Of a stretch of 63,811 bases of DNA, positions 3,202 through 38,346 are shown in pieces. The notes beneath the pieces are model-generated. The model was not told the origin of the DNA. It made no database searches and saw only the letters and a program-made list of their open reading frames with translations. Positions within the stretch are counted from its first letter, which is position 1; each line of letters opens with the position of its first letter. This DNA is from a virus (lineage: Duplodnaviria > Caudoviricetes): positions 1-63,811 of IMG/VR virus record IMGVR_UViG_3300002461_000106, one strand, 5' to 3'. Position numbers and translations under genes: made by a program.

Positions 3202-4272
3202 ATGGCAGAAGCAGCGACCGCAGCAAAAGACGACGACTTCGACGCCCTGTTCGACGAGGCGATCAAGAACGCAGATACGACCACCCCCGACCCGGTGCCG
3301 CAACAGGCCGCGGATGAAGCGGGGGCCGAGGACGACGCCGCGAAGAAGGCCGCGGATGAAGCTGCGGCGAAGGCGGCTGCGGAGGAGGCAGCGAAGGCCA
3401 ACGAAGGGAAGGCCCCCGAGGAGATCGCCGCAGCGAAGAAGGCCGAGGAGGATGCGGCCGCGAAAGCCGCTGCGGAGGAAGCTGCCACGAAGGCCAACGA
3501 AGGGAAGACACCTGAACAGATCGCTGCTGATGAAGCGGCTGCGAAGAAGGTAGCGGATGATGCTGCTGCGAAGGCCGCTGCAGATGAAGCGGCCGCGAAG
3601 GCTGCGGCTGCCGCACCGGCCCCGAAGCCGGACCCTGCACCGCCTGCCGAGACCGCCGAGGAGAAGGCGGAGCGGGAGAAGCGCGAGGCCGAGCACAAGG
3701 CCGCACTGGCAGACTACGAGTTCACGCCCGACGAGCAGAAGGCGCTGGAGTCGTTCAAGAAAGACTTCCCGACCGAGCACGTGGCGATCGAGGCCATGCT
3801 GAAGCGCATGGACCGCGTGATCACCCAGCGGGTCTACAACGGGGTGAACGCCGTCCTGCAGCGGGTGCATCAGGACTTTACGCCGGTGGTTCAGGGCTAC
3901 ACCCAGGACGCCGAAGCGCGTCACTTCGCGACGATCAAGGCTGCGCACGCGGACTACGATGCCGCGCTCCCGAAGGTCAACGAGTGGGTGGCGAAGCAGC
4001 CGAAGTACCTGCAGGCCGCCATGAAGGACGTGCTGGAGCAGGGTAGCGCGCAGGAGGTGATTGACCTGTTCGACCGCTTCAAGAAGGATGCGGGCGTGGC
4101 ACCTGCCGCTCCCGCGGCTCCGGCTGCGCCGGCCAAGCCGGCAACGCCCCCGCCGGACGACTCCGCTCTGACCCCGGTCAGCGCGAAGCGGGCGGCACCG
4201 GCACCGAGCGGTGGCGGCCCGGCCAAGGACGACTTCGATGGGGCGTTTGACGACGCCACAAAAAAGAAGTAG
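3202..4272 (+). CDS. Probable capsid scaffolding protein
   Basis: Ala/Glu/Lys/Pro-rich helical protein between portal and capsid genes; GGAGG RBS; internal duplication AAEEAA(T)KANEGKxPExIAA. Confidence 0.7.
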   Translation: MAEAATAAKDDDFDALFDEAIKNADTTTPDPVPQQAADEAGAEDDAAKKAADEAAAKAAAEEAAKANEGKAPEEIAAAKKAEEDAAAKAAAEEAATKANEGKTPEQIAADEAAAKKVADDAAAKAAADEAAAKAAAAAPAPKPDPAPPAETAEEKAEREKREAEHKAALADYEFTPDEQKALESFKKDFPTEHVAIEAMLKRMDRVITQRVYNGVNAVLQRVHQDFTPVVQGYTQDAEARHFATIKAAHADYDAALPKVNEWVAKQPKYLQAAMKDVLEQGSAQEVIDLFDRFKKDAGVAPAAPAAPAAPAKPATPPPDDSALTPVSAKRAAPAPSGGGPAKDDFDGAFDDATKKK

Positions 4273-32845: not shown

Positions 32846-34180
32846 GCGACCCGGTTCGCGAGTTTGGCCTTCAGTCGCTCAGCCAGGCTGGCCGCAGCCG
32901 CGTTGCCTGAGACCGGAGCCTGGGGGGCGACCGCTGGTGCCGCGCCGCCACCGAAGCCTGCTGCAGGTGCGGGGGTCGGTTGGGCCTGCGGAGCCGGTGC
33001 CGCCGGTGCAGATTGGGGTGCAGGGGCCGGCGTGGCTGCGGGGGCCGGAAACTGAGCGAGGATGGCCTGACCCGCCGGGCTGTCGATGCCCACCGCAGTG
33101 ACTGCGGTCTGCATGGCCCCGTCGAGGTGCGCGATACGCGGGTCCACCGCAGGTGCTTCCTCTTTCTTGGCGCGCGGCTTGCGGGCGGGCTTGGGTGCTT
33201 CCGGCTCGGCAACAGGCGCCGCTGCGGGTTGCGCCGCGACGGTGCCACCGAAGCCTGCGGTCGCGGCAGGCTGGACAGGTTCAACCACCGGCGCGGGTGC
33301 CGGCTGCGGAGCAGGTGCCGGAGCAGGTGCCGGAGCAGGTGCCGGAGCAGGTGCCGGAGCAGGTGCCGGAGCAGGTGCCGGAGCAGGTGCCGGAGGCTGC
33401 GGCTGCGGGCGGGGCGATGCGAGGTGTCGCGTCAGCGCGGGTGGGGGAGACGATGTTCTGCACATCCTCGCCCTTCACGCGGGCCAACACCTGCGCATAC
33501 TCGGCCTCGTTCAGGAACCGACCGAAGGAGAACATGAGCTTCGGGTAGCTGGCGTTGGCGTCGAACGTGATGTTGGTCACCACGCCGTTGATCGGCACGC
33601 CCTTCGCGGTCAGCGCCTTGGCGTAGGCACCCCACTCCTTCAGGGCCGATGCGGTCACCGACAGGGCGAGCGCCTTGTAACCCAGGTCGCCAGCGGGGAT
33701 GATCACCAGCCGCTTCGAGTCCGAGCACGCCTTGATCTCCTTGCCGCTCGACTCGCTGATCTTCGAGCCCCATTGGTTCTGCGGGCAGGTCGCGCAGGCG
33801 GTGTGTTGCGGTGAGGCGATGTGGCTGTCGGGCACCATGCCGTTGTCAGACGAGCAGTTCGGCTCGCCGTCATCGCCATCCTTGAACTTGCCCATGTAGA
33901 ACGTCTTGGTGATGGCCGGGTTGGCCGCCACGATCACGGCCTCCAGACACATCAGGGGGACGGGCGGCTGGCCCGCGACTGCCGGCGCCATGTAGGTGCG
34001 CTTCTCGCCGCCCTCGACTTCGTGGAACTTGCCACCGGCGATGGAGATGCGCGGGAACCCGCCGATCTTGATGCCGCCAGCCGCCGCAGCGTTGGCCGCA
34101 GCGATCGCAGCAGCCGCGTCGGGGGTCTGGAAGTGGGCCGGCAGCGCGCCGGTCGGGATGGTGCTCAGTGCTGTGCTCAT
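32842..34180 (-). CDS. ssDNA-binding/recombination-associated protein with Pro/Ala-rich tail (apparent frameshift at about 33410)
   Basis: N-terminal 'FPRISI', 'CSSDNG..PD', 'CATCPQNQWGS', 'KACS' in 33281..34180; natural PAPAP/charged tail in 32842..33465 frame. Confidence 0.6.
33308..33395. repeat. Tandem repeat, 7 x 12 bp (GGAGCAGGTGCC)
   Basis: Read directly; encodes (AP)n on the minus strand. Confidence 0.95.
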
Positions 34181-34204: not shown

Positions 34205-34603
34205 TCAGCCCTTGCGGAAGTGGACCTTCCGGAAGGTCGTGTAGTTGACCCCCGGCGGCGGCTGGTTGTTGGCTTCGATATGCTCTTTTACCGCGGTCTT
34301 GTTCGCGGCTTGGTTCAGCAGGTGCGTGGCTTTGTTAGCCAATACATAGTTGATGAACGCGTCGAAGTCGGACATCGACACCGAGTCGCCGGTCTTGAAG
34401 AACGCAAGGTTCCCATTGACCTTGACCTGGTCGGTCTTCGTCTTGTTCATGTGGTCGGCGACGAACGCCTCACACAGGCTCAGTTCATTCTTTAGCGGCT
34501 CCAGCTCGGCCTTATGCCGCCCCTCGATGATCGCGATTTCTTCGACCAGCTCGAACCGACGTGTCATCACCTCGTCGAGCCCCAGTTCAACTTCGTCACT
34601 CAT
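34205..34603 (-). CDS. Conserved phage hypothetical protein (replication module)
   Basis: GAGGAGG RBS; N-terminal coiled coil, C-terminal 'PPGVN...RK'. Confidence 0.75.
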   Translation of the reverse strand: MSDEVELGLDEVMTRRFELVEEIAIIEGRHKAELEPLKNELSLCEAFVADHMNKTKTDQVKVNGNLAFFKTGDSVSMSDFDAFINYVLANKATHLLNQAANKTAVKEHIEANNQPPPGVNYTTFRKVHFRKG

Positions 34604-34852: not shown

Positions 34853-37351
34853 TTACTGTTCATTGTTCTCCACCATCTCCAGCAGCACGCCCTGCAGCTT
34901 CTGCCGGTGCTCCAGCCGCTTGTAGGCTTTGCGCTCGACCGCGCTACCGGCCAGATGCACGATGTTCGCCACCTGGGTCTGCCCCGGTCGGGTGATCCGG
35001 CCGTTGGCCTGGGTGTAGGTGTCGTTCGAGTCCACCGGCGCATACCAGATGATCGTGCTCGCCTCGGTCAAGGTCAGGCCGTGGGCCATGCAGCCCGGGT
35101 GCGCGATCAGGACACTGGGGTCGGGCTTCGACTGGAAGTCGGCGAATATCTGGTCGCGCTCGTTCTTGTTGACTTCGCCATAGACCACCGCCGCCGACCA
35201 GTGCTTGCTGACGTGGCGGTAGAGCATGTTCGTCACCTCAGTGAACGGCACGAACACGATCACCTTCTCGTTACACATCTCGATCATTTCCAGCAGGGTC
35301 TCGACCCGGTTGCCGGGGTCAATCTCGTTGGGCTTGCCCTCGGTGTCGTACACCACACCGCAGTTGTGGACGATGCGCATCTCCCCCTCAGCCCCCCGCA
35401 CCACGAACCGCGATCGAGGGCCGCAATTTACGATATCGTAGACGTGAGCCGCAGCGGTTCTCGGACTGCCCTTGCCAAGGGCCACCCATACCGGCGAACC
35501 CGAGCGTGCAGCGTCCCATGCTGCATCCCGATCAGACGCGCTACTTGTGCCAGGGTCTGTCTCCGCCCCCGGAACCACACGAAGCGGTTGCTCCGTTTGT
35601 TGTTTGCTTGCTGGCGCGGAGTCTCCCACCGGCAATTGGCTGGGGAGTACATGCCATCGTTGTTGATCCGCCCCAGAGTCAGATGTTCGGCATACCCACG
35701 ACGCATGTCGGCCCAGAAGGCGTCGAAGGAACGATCCCACCTGACGCATACACGTATGCCACGACCGCCATAATTCGGCCAATCGCGGTCTTTCCTGTCG
35801 CGGCAGCGGCGCCGCATCTGAGTCCATATACGAAATGGGCGAGATTCGCTCATCCTGTGAGTTTCGTTCCCGTGATGGCATCCACAGCTCCGGGGGTGCT
35901 TGCGATGCTTGGAGCGAAGATATTGGCTCCTCCGCACGACGTCGTTCCCGCACTCGCAGCGGCACAGCCACGTCGCGCATTGACTCGATCCGTTCGTGGT
36001 CCCCGCTCTGGACAACACAGTCAGGTAGCCGAACTTCTGCCCAACCAAATTCTTCGCCGGATTTGCCATTAAGTATGTCCTTAGCAGGCTGCCACCCGCC
36101 GATCGTTAGCATCTCGTGTTCGGGGGTTACCTGCACCCCCCCGCAAACTACCGTTTCCCGCAACCCTTTATATATAGCTCCCCCATGTGAAACCCACTCC
36201 ACCCCATCCCACACGAGATTGCTAAGTGTAACACGTTCAATGGGGAGCCACCCGGCGTCTGTCAGAACTGGGGTGCCCTCTGCGATACAGGCGATCTGCA
36301 CGAGCTTCGACAGCTTGACCCCTTCATTGACTGCGGTGACCTTCGCACCCTCGGCGACCTCGGTGTAGAGTTCCCGCATGATGTTCTTGTAGTGCCGTTG
36401 CTGCTCGTCGGACATCTCGACATCGTAGGTCGAGTAAATTTCGCCCGGCAGGTCCAGACACTCGTCGCGACGGTAGCGGATCGCCGGTCGCATGGCGGAG
36501 TAGACGATCTTGTTGGCCTCGGCACGCGGGGTCCAGACGTAGGTGGACTGGTGCTCCATCACCATGTTCCGGAACTGGCTGAAGTATTGGGGCACGCTGG
36601 TCGGTGTGACCAGCCGGCACTGGCCATACGCATCGGTCGGCGCGTTCGGCGTTGGGCCGCCGGTCAGCCCCCACACCCACGGGCGGGGCGGCTTGTTCTT
36701 GGGGTAGATGACCGAGTTGATCGCGCGCCACTTCTCTGTTCGCGAATTGCGATAATGGGCGACCTCGTCAATGATGATCAGGTTGATATCGTCGCGTGCT
36801 TCGAGTTCCTTCTTGATCACCCCGATGCCGTCGTGATTGATGATATAGAAGTCGCGCTGCTGTGCCAGCAGCTTCCTGCGCTTCGCGGCGCTGCCATGCA
36901 GCACGTTGTACGTGCGGTGGCGGAAGTTGAAGAACAGCGTGTCGCCCCACGCGCGCTCAAGGGTGGACAGCGGGGCGATGATGAGCGCCCGCTGCACGGC
37001 GCCGATCTCCATCAGGTAGTCAGCCGCCCAGGCGGTCGAGATGGTCTTGCCGCTGCCGATGTCATTCAGGCAGAACGCCCGCGGGTTGATGGTCAGGAAC
37101 CCCGCGGTGTCGACCTGGTGGGCGTACGGCTGCGGCACCTTCTGGAGGTCGCGCGGCCAGCGGTAGTAATGTTCAATCGGGCTCGGCGGTCGCATGCCCC
37201 GAGCCGCCAGCCGGATGCAGGTGTCGAGGTCGAACGCCATGCCGTGGAAGCCGGGTATGACTTCAAACGCTTCAGGCACGGCCTGCAGGACTTGCGGCGT
37301 GTTGGCAGTCTCGACGACCAGCGCGCCATCTTCGGGAAAGGGGTGGAACAT
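34853..37351 (-). CDS. SNF2-family (SF2) helicase containing an intein
   Basis: 'DIGSGKT', 'IIDEVAH', 'GLTGGP', 'AHGLTLT', 'QANGRITRPGQ'; intein between LVQIA and CGVVY. Confidence 0.9.
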   Translation of the reverse strand: MFHPFPEDGALVVETANTPQVLQAVPEAFEVIPGFHGMAFDLDTCIRLAARGMRPPSPIEHYYRWPRDLQKVPQPYAHQVDTAGFLTINPRAFCLNDIGSGKTISTAWAADYLMEIGAVQRALIIAPLSTLERAWGDTLFFNFRHRTYNVLHGSAAKRRKLLAQQRDFYIINHDGIGVIKKELEARDDINLIIIDEVAHYRNSRTEKWRAINSVIYPKNKPPRPWVWGLTGGPTPNAPTDAYGQCRLVTPTSVPQYFSQFRNMVMEHQSTYVWTPRAEANKIVYSAMRPAIRYRRDECLDLPGEIYSTYDVEMSDEQQRHYKNIMRELYTEVAEGAKVTAVNEGVKLSKLVQIACIAEGTPVLTDAGWLPIERVTLSNLVWDGVEWVSHGGAIYKGLRETVVCGGVQVTPEHEMLTIGGWQPAKDILNGKSGEEFGWAEVRLPDCVVQSGDHERIESMRDVAVPLRVRERRRAEEPISSLQASQAPPELWMPSRERNSQDERISPISYMDSDAAPLPRQERPRLAELWRSWHTCMRQVGSFLRRLLGRHASWVCRTSDSGADQQRWHVLPSQLPVGDSAPASKQQTEQPLRVVPGAETDPGTSSASDRDAAWDAARSGSPVWVALGKGSPRTAAAHVYDIVNCGPRSRFVVRGAEGEMRIVHNCGVVYDTEGKPNEIDPGNRVETLLEMIEMCNEKVIVFVPFTEVTNMLYRHVSKHWSAAVVYGEVNKNERDQIFADFQSKPDPSVLIAHPGCMAHGLTLTEASTIIWYAPVDSNDTYTQANGRITRPGQTQVANIVHLAGSAVERKAYKRLEHRQKLQGVLLEMVENNEQ
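35363..36289 (-). mobile_element. Intein (309 aa) in helicase
   Basis: N-terminus 'CIAEGTPVLT', block B 'VTPEHEML', block F 'VYDI', C-terminus 'VHN' followed by Cys. Confidence 0.9.
35428..36069 (-). CDS. HNH-type homing endonuclease nested in the intein in an alternative frame
   Basis: 'GQKFGYLTV', 'WLCRCECG', 'SCGC', 'YGGRGIRVC..W..F..F..DM', 'RINNDG.YSPANCRW.T..QQANN'; own SD TAAGGA. Confidence 0.85.
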   Translation of the reverse strand: MANPAKNLVGQKFGYLTVLSRAGTTNGSSQCATWLCRCECGNDVVRRSQYLRSKHRKHPRSCGCHHGNETHRMSESRPFRIWTQMRRRCRDRKDRDWPNYGGRGIRVCVRWDRSFDAFWADMRRGYAEHLTLGRINNDGMYSPANCRWETPRQQANNKRSNRFVWFRGRRQTLAQVARLIGMQHGTLHARVRRYGWPLARAVREPLRLTSTIS

Positions 37352-37575
37352 CAGACGGGCTCTACTTCATCAGCGAAGAAGTAGAAAACTTTATAGTACT
37401 GAATCATCTCCCCATTGAAGTCCATTGGCTCGACGCCAAAAAAGACTCGGTAGTCATATTTATCAAAATCGTTCTTTTCGAGAGTGCCTACTTCACCAGC
37501 AGCCCACCTGCCGCCCGGGCACGCGCGCTTGACGCGCACTTTACTCCCGATTGGCATCATTCCAGCCTTCTTCAT
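37351..37575 (-). CDS. Hypothetical protein
   Basis: Coupled ORF with A/T-richer codons. Confidence 0.55.
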   Translation of the reverse strand: MKKAGMMPIGSKVRVKRACPGGRWAAGEVGTLEKNDFDKYDYRVFFGVEPMDFNGEMIQYYKVFYFFADEVEPV

Positions 37576-37784
37576 CGCCCACGCTCCAGTCGTTGCTGGC
37601 ACTCTACGTCCCGCACCTTACCCAGCGCCAGCCGGGGTGCTGGGATCTCCTCACCGCAGTCGACACAGTGCGTGCCATCAAAGTCCGGGTGCGACTCCGG
37701 GCCGCTCTTGCCGCGTGCGCGGCGCTCAGCATTCTCAGTGAACGCGGCGGCGCGGTCGTTGGCGATGTCGATTGGGTCAGCCAT
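37572..37784 (-). CDS. TraR/DksA-family C4 zinc-finger protein
   Basis: 'MADPIDIA', 'CVDCGEEIP..RL', 'RDVECQ' (third Cys replaced by Asp). Confidence 0.8.
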   Translation of the reverse strand: MADPIDIANDRAAAFTENAERRARGKSGPESHPDFDGTHCVDCGEEIPAPRLALGKVRDVECQQRLERGR

Positions 37785-37976
37785 TCACAGAACCCTCCGC
37801 ATTCTCTGAAGCGCCGCTTCAATTTTGGGTATGTCATGAACCCGACACGATGAGATAGTGTTCGGGTGAAACTCGCGACCTGAGTCGGACTCCTCGACGA
37901 TATCAAGCAGCGCGAAGAATTCATGAATGCCCTGAATGGCATCGGCCGCAATACTCACGTCGTTGGGGCTAACCAT
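37785..37976 (-). CDS. Hypothetical protein
   Basis: 'EESDSGREFHP..ISSCR' 63 aa. Confidence 0.55.
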   Translation of the reverse strand: MVSPNDVSIAADAIQGIHEFFALLDIVEESDSGREFHPNTISSCRVHDIPKIEAALQRMRRVL

Positions 37977-38346
37977 TGACTTTCTCCCATAACAGGTTAC
38001 TCAACTCGCCCTCCAGCGCGGCGATGTCCTCGACCCCGTCGCAGCAGATGGCGAACCCGCCGGCGGCGCGGATGTCGACCATGTGGTCGAACTGATGCTT
38101 CGACATGCCGCGGTTCTTTTCGTTCCGCCGGCCAGGCTTCTTCGACTCGACGCTCACGAACAGCCCGATACGCTTCCCGACCATCTCGGGTGTCACCGTG
38201 ATGGGCAGACACCCGATGCGGTCGTGGATGCCATGAACACCCATACCGTTTTGAATAGGGGCGTAGTGCCAAGCCTGCTGCGCGTCGTACCACTCTTTGA
38301 CTACCTCCTTGACGTGGTTTTCAGTGGTGATCTTCTTAGGCATCAT
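37969..38346 (-). CDS. VRR-NUC-like PD-(D/E)XK nuclease
   Basis: 'GMGVHGIHDRIGC', 'FVSVESKKPG', 'Q......IRAAGG.A'. Confidence 0.75.
   Translation of the reverse strand: MMPKKITTENHVKEVVKEWYDAQQAWHYAPIQNGMGVHGIHDRIGCLPITVTPEMVGKRIGLFVSVESKKPGRRNEKNRGMSKHQFDHMVDIRAAGGFAICCDGVEDIAALEGELSNLLWEKVNG

Follow-up and report, generated by a model that had tools for sequence, protein, structure and literature searches.

This report concerns an intein in a helicase gene of IMG/VR virus record IMGVR_UViG_3300002461_000106 and a second gene that is read from the same DNA in another frame. The whole stretch analysed, called the window below, is the complete single-contig genome of a phage-like element with a length of 63,811 bp and a GC content of 62%, and all of its genes and features described here lie on the minus strand. 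The open reading frame (ORF) at 34853..37351 encodes a SNF2-family helicase precursor of 832 aa, intein included; it matches the Pfam families SNF2-rel_dom, Helicase_C, ResIII and DEAD and the PHROGs family phrog_62, DNA helicase (E 7e-84). The N-extein (36290..37351, helicase residues 1–354) is followed by a class 1 intein of 309 aa (35363..36289, helicase residues 355–663) and by the C-extein, which runs from its Cys+1 through the stop codon (34853..35362). Nested in the intein, in the +1 frame, is an ORF for a homing-endonuclease-like protein of the HNH family with 213 aa (35428..36069, stop included). We regard it as highly probable that a mobile class 1 intein has inserted itself into the Q-I-A/C-G motif of this phage SNF2 helicase and that its homing endonuclease is overprinted as a separate gene, not fused to it as an in-frame domain.

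Anatomy of the helicase intein and its nested ORF

Both flanks of the intein align by BLASTP to one continuous protein, the intein-less helicase of Pseudomonas phage Rollin, with residues 10–354 of the precursor matching Rollin residues 9–348 and residues 663–829 matching Rollin residues 348–515. No insert is present at the intein site in 79 of the 80 closest IMG/VR helicase homologues (40–61% identity), the remaining one being cut by the contig end, and many intein-less homologues read K-L-V-Q-I-A-C-G-V-V-Y, which is the sequence of the window's two flanks joined, with the same Cys in the same Q-I-A-C-G context. Since the Rollin alignment and the 79 homologues are uninterrupted at the site, the intein is, as judged from these comparisons, a clean, sporadic, in-frame insertion in a conserved host motif. 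A tblastn search of the 63.8-kb genome found no second copy of the intein or of the HNH, and GenBank phages gave no nucleotide match to the region.

The sequence-only reading of this DNA had claimed intact splicing blocks and a frame open for 309 codons, and both claims hold, with no stop in the 309 codons. C1 is encoded at 36287..36289, T-P-E-H occupies intein residues 55–58, an Asp stands at position 285, and the C-terminal H308-N309 pair is followed by Cys+1 of the C-extein, encoded at 35360..35362. C1, T55, H58, D285, H308 and N309 are invariant in an alignment of 38 sequences, which consists of the window, the mini-intein L046 and the 36 of 50 listed intein references whose C-terminal end could be placed cleanly. 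The N-terminal splicing domain (intein residues 1–95, 36005..36289) is conserved in this alignment, and the V-Y-D..N-C-G-P-R..H-N block of the C-terminal splicing domain (residues 278–309, 35363..35458) is kept.

AlphaFold2 gives the N-terminal domain a beta-rich fold with block-mean pLDDT values (predicted local distance difference test) of 94–98 for residues 1–70, 73 for residues 71–80 and 88 for residues 81–90, and the C-terminal domain values of 94–96 (at least 94 over residues 281–309). Between them lies the host-frame read-through linker (residues 96–277, 35459..36004), which is open and appears to be unstructured and unconstrained as a protein. The centre had been described as featureless and rich in Arg, Ser and Pro, and composition, family scans and pLDDT all agree with that description: residues 96–275 contain 12.8% R, 12.8% S and 8.9% P against 6.7%, 4.0% and 6.3% in the exteins, the host-frame centre has no family match in Pfam, NCBIfam or PHROGs, and most of residues 96–274 have pLDDT values below 50, apart from a predicted helix at 168–196. 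The top PDB matches of the intein model in Foldseek are the DnaX, RecA and DnaB mini-inteins at a probability of 1.00, with E values of 1.6e-3 to 1e-2 that are modest because of the long disordered centre. The predicted structure is that of intein ends forming a Hint fold across this centre.

The nested ATG at 36069 lies 1282 nt from the helicase ATG, which places it in the +1 frame. It is preceded by the Shine–Dalgarno-like (SD) sequence TAAGGA (36078..36083), with 8 nt from AAGGA to the ATG, and the nested stop TAA (35428..35430) falls inside the V-Y-D-I-V-N block of the intein, where it is made up of codon positions 2 and 3 of Val287 and codon position 1 of Asn288. A coherent 213-aa HNH-type ORF in the +1 frame, with its own SD and a stop overlapping the C-terminal intein block, had been proposed earlier, and each of these elements is present. 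The nested protein matches phrog_374, 'HNH endonuclease', over residues 3–190 (PHROGs, E 1.3e-53), and it is matched in 897 GenBank phage records, 382 of which cover at least 80% of its length.

From an alignment of 56 sequences, composed of the window and 55 loci (L001–L003 were left out), AlphaFold2 models the nested protein with a mean pLDDT of 90.0, and a comparison of this model with the predicted viral structures of BFVD gives 137 matches at E ≤ 0.001, with names that include HNH endonuclease, HTH homing endonuclease and AP2-domain protein. In the same alignment C38, C40, C62, R88, Y100, R103, G104, R134, Y141, N145 and N157 are invariant and C64 is nearly so. The cysteines at 38, 40, 62 and 64 form a four-Cys cluster (35878..35958), a putative zinc site, and residues 131–157 (35599..35679) carry a putative beta-beta-alpha-metal motif with G133, R134, Y141, N145 and N157, for which the model has strands at 131–134 and 146–149 and a helix at 151–156.

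Over this motif the family profile gives weak matches to PacI (E 0.097) and I-HmuI (E 0.098), the former spanning family positions 125–158. PacI (PDB 3ldy, 3m7k) differs from the family proteins in being a restriction enzyme of 142 aa, and it shares with them a D-R...Y...N...N beta-beta-alpha-metal motif without the canonical first His, as well as Cys4-type zinc sites, which are putative in the family. At the place of the first His of the H-N-H motif the family has D/E-R, as does PacI in the alignment. In PacI the metal is reported to be bound by an Asp and an Asn, with a Tyr replacing the usual His as general base (PMC4081073), and N113 is given as the metal-binding Asn (PMC3996161). On this slender likeness the family looks tentatively like a PacI-like HNH variant.

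Within the same weak match the family D-R aligns with the D-R of PacI, and residue 133 stands opposite the Asp of PacI V-D-R-S-D. The codon of residue 133 lies at 35671..35673, and the sequence-only reading had noted a Gly here at a position where Asp is usual. This is correct: in the 59 non-redundant family members defined below the column holds D 48 times, E 10 times and G once, the sole G being that of the window, which thus has Gly133 in place of a putative acidic metal ligand on the first strand.

Frame and distribution of the HNH gene in the intein family

Scanning IMG/VR with the window intein yielded 107 matches, and 80 loci were retained from them. Adding the window and three loci from GenBank brings the number of sequences with an N-terminal splicing block to 84. 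The frame of the HNH located between the splicing blocks was, by tblastn, +1 in 69 of them, +2 in 5 and that of the intein in none, and 10 gave no match. The five +2-frame ORFs belong to phrog_374 too. Among the ten sequences without a match, L069 and L075 have +1-frame phrog_374 ORFs by PHROGs, and L076, which was outside that scan, has the same host-frame translation; L046, L066 and L073 are mini-inteins of 134–148 aa from which the HNH is absent; three reach the contig edge, and L083 has an unassigned +1-frame ORF of 130 aa. The earlier suggestion to look for alternative-frame HNH ORFs in phage inteins has thus yielded them in both other frames, and neither the window, with its offset of +1, nor any of its relatives is a canonical in-frame HNH intein. 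Across the sequences compared, an out-of-frame HNH is the rule for the whole intein family.

Further comparisons used 59 non-redundant +1-frame nested ORFs that have a start and a stop and a length of 170–300 aa. Such ORFs occur in 66 of the 69 sequences, from which seven exact duplicates were subtracted; the other three are L035, which a contig end cuts, and L051 and L084, whose nested ORF is broken with a first piece of 62 aa, and the five +2 loci were not counted. L004, which has no intein, served only as a free-standing control. The host frame is free of stops over 58 of the 59 nested ORFs at GC contents of 42–67%, and the third frame is free of stops over none of them, with a mean of 11.7 stops. 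ATG, GTG or TTG serves as start codon in all 59, and the distances from the beginning of the intein fall on a few recurring values, 202 nt in 22 cases. An SD-like match of at least 4 nt precedes 51 of the 59 starts, as against 28.6% of 7591 control start-like triplets, and this SD is often built from the codons of the conserved (E/K)-G-W of the intein. The nested stop lies 8 to 83 nt before the intein end in the 55 non-redundant members with a detected C-terminal block.

The identity between HNH proteins correlates with that between the splicing domains (r 0.71, a value reached in 0 of 2000 permutations), as expected if the HNH and the splicing domains travel as one unit, with shared descent of the host genes also adding to r. 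The sequence-only reading had proposed that the arrangement uncouples homing from splicing, and this is only partly so, since the similarities of the two parts co-vary.

The family spans several DNA polymerase lineages as well as SNF2 helicases, with many neighbouring insertion sites. In helicases, the intein occupies the window's site in L005–L008, lies five residues upstream in L009–L011 and L029, and is found in motif V in L037. In APSE-like DNA polymerases it occurs at three neighbouring points of Y-G-G-K-L-x-E-N, and in other polymerases at several points of a K-x-x-N-F-G-x-x-Y-G-like motif. In L040 and L041, which are identical, one DNA polymerase (host ORF from 861) has two inteins at different sites, each with its own +1-frame phrog_374 ORF.

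In GenBank, tblastn found the intein family in 29 phage records, all in DNA polymerase genes. The carriers are SFCi1, four Caulobacter phages, APSE phages, Gardnerella phage AB1 and Streptococcus prophages, with one or two each from Vibrio, Ruminococcus, Pseudomonas and EBPR, and no actinophage record is among these 29 matches to the window intein. With the nested protein as query, the tblastn matches in APSE phages and in Shewanella phage SFCi1 likewise lay within genes annotated as DNA polymerase. APSE-1 and SFCi1 each have a homologous intein with a +1-frame ORF of the same HNH family (216 or 224 aa) and an open host frame. In the intein of the APSE-1 DNA polymerase P45 both splicing blocks are homologous to those of the window (46% and 59% identity, tblastn), and the 216-aa nested ORF is 38% identical to that of the window, with a host frame that is open at 46% GC; the difference lies in the host gene, a DNA polymerase in APSE-1 and a helicase in the window.

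The APSE-1 genome (NC_000935.1; L002:2989-3639) has RefSeq P46 inside P45, a 141-aa HNH endonuclease annotated from an internal ATG (position 3217 of the locus), and the full family-homologous ORF begins at a GTG at 2989 and has 216 aa. Among the matched GenBank records only two, both of APSE-1, annotate the nested gene, and the RefSeq form is shortened. We found no paper that names APSE-1 P46 as the endonuclease of the intein or that describes this HNH/intein family, in a literature search that did not extend to several older papers, InBase or supplementary tables; the family is apparently undescribed.

Free-standing homologues of the nested protein start at the same N-terminal motif as the nested ORFs, and one of them, PEi21 gp60, is encoded immediately ahead of a helicase gene. 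A shorter free-standing member of the HNH family is located directly after the helicase gene in L086:4006-4551, L088:4021-4665 and L089:3982-4563. These are three of the window's four closest intein-less helicase relatives (57–61% identity) and the three closest whose loci extend past the helicase gene. Their HNH proteins are without the N-terminal Cys cluster and 37–39% identical to the nested protein, and at the insertion site their helicases read Q-I-A/V-G-G, not Q-I-A-C-G.

One relative has a divided host frame. In L025:3001-3963, the same intein family occurs in an APSE-like DNA polymerase, in which the host frame stops after 84 intein residues (3253-3255), the HNH ORF (3242-3880) has the SD AGGAGG, and the original frame is reopened by an ATG at 3877 that overlaps the HNH stop, to encode from there the C-terminal splicing block and the C-extein. 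By its layout, L025 would be a natural split intein, or 'fractured gene', that arose from the overprinted form, and it could also be a pseudogene. The host frame of the window is continuous, so that the split layout is found in L025 and not in the window; the link to intein splitting that the sequence-only reading had suggested has in L025 a concrete example.

Chance, sequencing support and selection on the two frames

When the nested ORF was recoded synonymously with extein codon usage, an open host frame survived in 648 of 20000 trials with the window, in 0 of 20000 with APSE-1 and in 188 of 20000 with SFCi1, and permutation of the ORF's own synonymous codons left that frame open in 0, 1 and 244 of 20000, respectively. 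The third frame of the window overlap has 5 stops, and the corresponding frame of the free-standing PEi21 gp60 has 18. An open host frame as a mere product of high GC content is rejected by these recoding tests and by the openness of the frame across the range of family GC contents. The stop-free second frame, which had been taken from the start to suggest selection, is indeed kept by selection, being open in 58 of 59 members including the AT-rich APSE-1.

A near-identical stretch (35300-36400) is found in public sequencing runs of nine studies (20 rows), with run labels of activated carbon, drinking water, biofilter, freshwater, wastewater and sludge; the phage lineage seems to be widespread in engineered and natural freshwater systems. 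Four of the runs were examined. Contigs of three, from three different studies, span the stretch without indels or joints, and in the fourth (X10) it is present in pieces only, likewise without indels. Compensating indels, which the sequence-only reading had seen as the danger to its account, are thus absent from spanning contigs of three studies, and the observation stands. None of the four runs showed an intein-less allele of this phage, although contigs can hide rare variants, and the Gly133 codon has no single-nucleotide polymorphism (SNP) in them.

A related strain, present in two runs, has 10 SNPs in the overlap. Read in the HNH frame, 9 are synonymous and one is V>I; read in the host frame, all 10 are nonsynonymous (e.g., W>R, S>F), and none creates a stop. 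Of the 11 SNPs that lie in the flanking N-extein, 10 leave the host-frame protein unchanged. Because 9 of the 10 overlap SNPs are silent for the HNH protein and all 10 alter the host-frame residue, we have direct evidence that within the window's lineage the +1 frame is the one read as protein under constraint. The earlier suggestion that Gly133 may mark a decaying nuclease fails on the same data: strains that share Gly133 still show purifying selection on the HNH frame, and the nested gene is therefore not simply decaying.

Close pairs within the family give the same picture, with differences mostly at HNH codon position 3, then 1, then 2; for L009 and L011 the differences per site are 0.167, 0.057 and 0.022 at positions 3, 1 and 2, respectively. 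The least variable HNH codon position is the host frame's own third position. The HNH frame is under purifying selection, and the host-frame linker is constrained only to stay open.

Around the helicase gene, a phrog_13900 'minor head protein' gene follows directly (34205-34603), and farther downstream is a 299-aa ORF of phrog_27714, unknown function (33281-34180), which ends in seven S-G-T-C repeats (about 33290-33380, a 12-nt tandem DNA repeat that reads as R-C-R-S repeats on the opposite strand). The upstream genes encode a DksA-like zinc-finger protein (37572-37784, phrog_54) and an endonuclease-like protein (37969-38346, phrog_93). The neighbourhood of the helicase gene is a phage replication module.

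Proposed model, alternative explanations and related systems

In the model that we propose, the helicase mRNA would be translated through the overlap into the 832-aa precursor, in which the two Hint modules, about 95 aa at the N-terminal and about 32 aa at the C-terminal end, would join across the disordered linker of about 180 residues and excise the 309-aa intein to leave a helicase of 523 aa. The splicing step is proposed because the splicing residues and the predicted fold are intact. Ribosomes would start independently at the ATG at 36069, guided by an SD embedded in intein codons, and we propose separate initiation because of this SD, the conservation of the start codon and the selection on the HNH frame. 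The product of 213 aa would have the four-Cys cluster, the PacI-like beta-beta-alpha-metal motif and a C-terminal part that is helical. Across the family, the HNH protein would cut intein-less alleles near the insertion site and thereby drive the homing of intein and HNH as a unit.

As to the origin of the arrangement, a free-standing HNH gene with its own stop probably invaded a mini-intein between the splicing blocks. An insertion in frame would truncate the host protein, so only out-of-frame insertions would survive, and selection would then clear the stops from the host frame. This would account for the lack of in-frame versions among the 84 sequences, because the captured gene's own stop, read in frame, would truncate the host protein.

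Several points weigh against this model. We infer splicing, internal initiation, nuclease activity and the target site rather than see them directly, and no RNA run is listed among those holding the stretch (rows guessed to be RNA are probably DNA). The nested ORF has no Pfam match at E ≤ 0.001 (three at 0.019–0.088 are well under the cut-offs) and no NCBIfam match, and Foldseek found nothing for its model in the PDB at E ≤ 0.001, so it is the PHROG label, the weak profile matches and the geometry of the motif that support the assignment as a nuclease. The copy with Gly133 may bind DNA without cutting it, as the residue is acidic in the other 58 of 59 members. The survey itself used the window's host frame as query, with 3 of 6 search peptides from the overlap, and a bias towards like frames is possible; most loci share only the V-W-D-G-V-E-W-V block with the query. 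There are also signs of decay in the family. The nested HNH frame of L051 and L084 (3134-3895) is broken into pieces of 62 and 191 aa, and L036 (3001-3123) has a stop at intein residue 40, where L027, with a nested ORF 89% identical, is open. These three loci are either pseudogenes or assembly errors.

It should also be considered that the nested ORF might be a recently inactivated relic, in which Gly133 killed the nuclease, the intein became fixed and immobile, and only the open helicase frame shapes the DNA. The uniqueness of Gly133 in a column of D and E, beside the invariant R134 of the putative metal site, would fit such a history, and so would the lack of an intein-less allele in the runs examined and the broken nested ORFs of L051 and L084; however, every other invariant residue, the start, the SD and the stop are intact, and the overlap SNPs of strains with Gly133, nine synonymous and one V>I in the HNH frame, include none that is synonymous in the host frame, which makes a relic unlikely. 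Programmed +1 ribosomal frameshifting, which would yield the HNH as a fusion in place of internal initiation, has less to recommend it. It agrees with the common direction of the two frames and with the +1 shift from host to HNH in 69 sequences, but five relatives have the HNH in the +2 frame, every one of the 59 nested ORFs has a start codon at a recurring offset and 51 an SD-like motif, the free-standing homologues share the N-terminal start motif, and in L025 the host frame does not run on into the HNH region, where the HNH ORF keeps its own SD and ATG. We consider a frameshift very improbable.

It is harder still to believe that the insert never splices and is retained by the mature helicase as a loop that it tolerates. 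The ShiLan case, an HNH inserted out of frame with no intein (PMC11855218), lends this idea some precedent; against it, all class 1 splicing residues are present here and invariant in the family, the ends are predicted with high confidence to fold as Hint with mini-inteins as the best PDB matches, and the insertion point falls within a conserved helicase motif, which runs uninterrupted in 79 of the 80 closest homologues. An artefact of assembly or sequencing, in which two compensating indels hide an ordinary in-frame HNH intein, has next to no probability: it is refuted by contigs of three studies without indels, by the lack of an in-frame HNH in 84 sequences, and by the start, SD and stop of the nested ORF. 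An overprinted, separately translated HNH gene in a splicing intein remains by far the best account.

The sequence-only reading had further claimed a third arrangement, beside in-frame inteins and fractured genes. Its description stands, namely a contiguous intein that tolerates an unstructured read-through, with a separate +1-frame HNH that has its own start, SD and stop; its novelty does not, as an arrangement of this kind is already published. In actinophage inteins, Gosselin, Arsenault and Gogarten (bioRxiv 10.1101/2025.01.02.630785) report endonucleases that are antisense, of LAGLIDADG or Vsr-like type, or endonuclease VII-like in 'frame 3', and they term such architectures rare and perhaps overlooked. 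Like the present family, the 'frame 3' type is a contiguous intein whose splicing blocks enclose an endonuclease ORF that is read from the same strand in another frame, with a host-frame stretch of no recognisable structure, and the authors propose invasion by a free-standing homing endonuclease. The actinophage endonuclease is of the endonuclease VII-like type (IPR004211), with a catalytic core at residues 1–67, in 'frame 3' and in actinophage genes; in contrast, the present family has a phrog_374 PacI-like HNH with its motif at 131–157, mostly in the +1 frame, in phage DNA polymerases and SNF2 helicases at at least 80 IMG/VR loci.

The cyanobacterial dnaX intein has a +2-frame LAGLIDADG endonuclease and frame-dependent selection (Phillips, DeSimone and Gogarten, bioRxiv 10.64898/2026.09.14.751524), and according to the same source this was first proposed by Gorbalenya in 1998, whom the 2025 preprint likewise credits. 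This system shares with ours an overlapping endonuclease ORF with SD motifs, a disordered host-frame centre and mini-intein relatives; its omega is given as low in the endonuclease frame and high in the host frame, and selection in the present family is frame-dependent likewise. It differs in its LAGLIDADG type, in the frame used and in being confined to a single bacterial gene, whereas the present family occupies many sites in several phage replication genes.

In the fractured genes described by Dassa et al. (2009, PMC2677866), split inteins have a free-standing endonuclease between their halves. Common to these and to the window is an endonuclease gene with its own signals between the splicing parts and with a 3' end that overlaps the downstream intein part; the endonucleases there are Vsr-like or GIY-YIG, and the window has a continuous frame, one precursor and predicted splicing in cis. 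The layout of L025 corresponds to the fractured-gene form (cf. PMC2677866) of the present family. In ShiLan, an HNH ORF is inserted out of frame inside a phage methylase whose frame stays open (Arsenault et al. 2025, PMC11855218), as here, but the insert is described without flanking splicing domains, and the HNH of the window is flanked by complete class 1 intein blocks. The overprinted helicase intein is thus a case of a known principle, published recently, in a family that we found undescribed.

Inteins are usually taught as a splicing domain with an endonuclease fused to it in frame. In the family reported here, with at least 70 loci from isolates and metagenomes, the exception published as 'rare' is the rule. 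We see about an even chance that, in a widespread family of inteins in phage replication genes, overprinting is both ancestral and stable, with the HNH always separate, in +1 or +2, and never fused. If this is true, about 640 nt would be kept readable in two frames by selection against stops, at least one natural split intein would have arisen from the arrangement (L025), and the APSE-1 intein, sequenced in 1999, would have had an unrecognised homing endonuclease. As only two APSE-1 records among the matched GenBank records annotate the nested gene, automatic annotation misses such genes, and phage inteins regarded as 'endonuclease-less' or 'decaying' deserve a check in six frames.

The family also offers a simple reason why captured endonucleases would be found out of frame, namely that their own stop codon would otherwise truncate the host protein. 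If overprinting is indeed its ancestral state, mini-intein, overprinted intein and fractured gene would form a natural series on which endonuclease capture and the origin of split inteins can be tested, with the family itself supplying natural intermediates towards split inteins.

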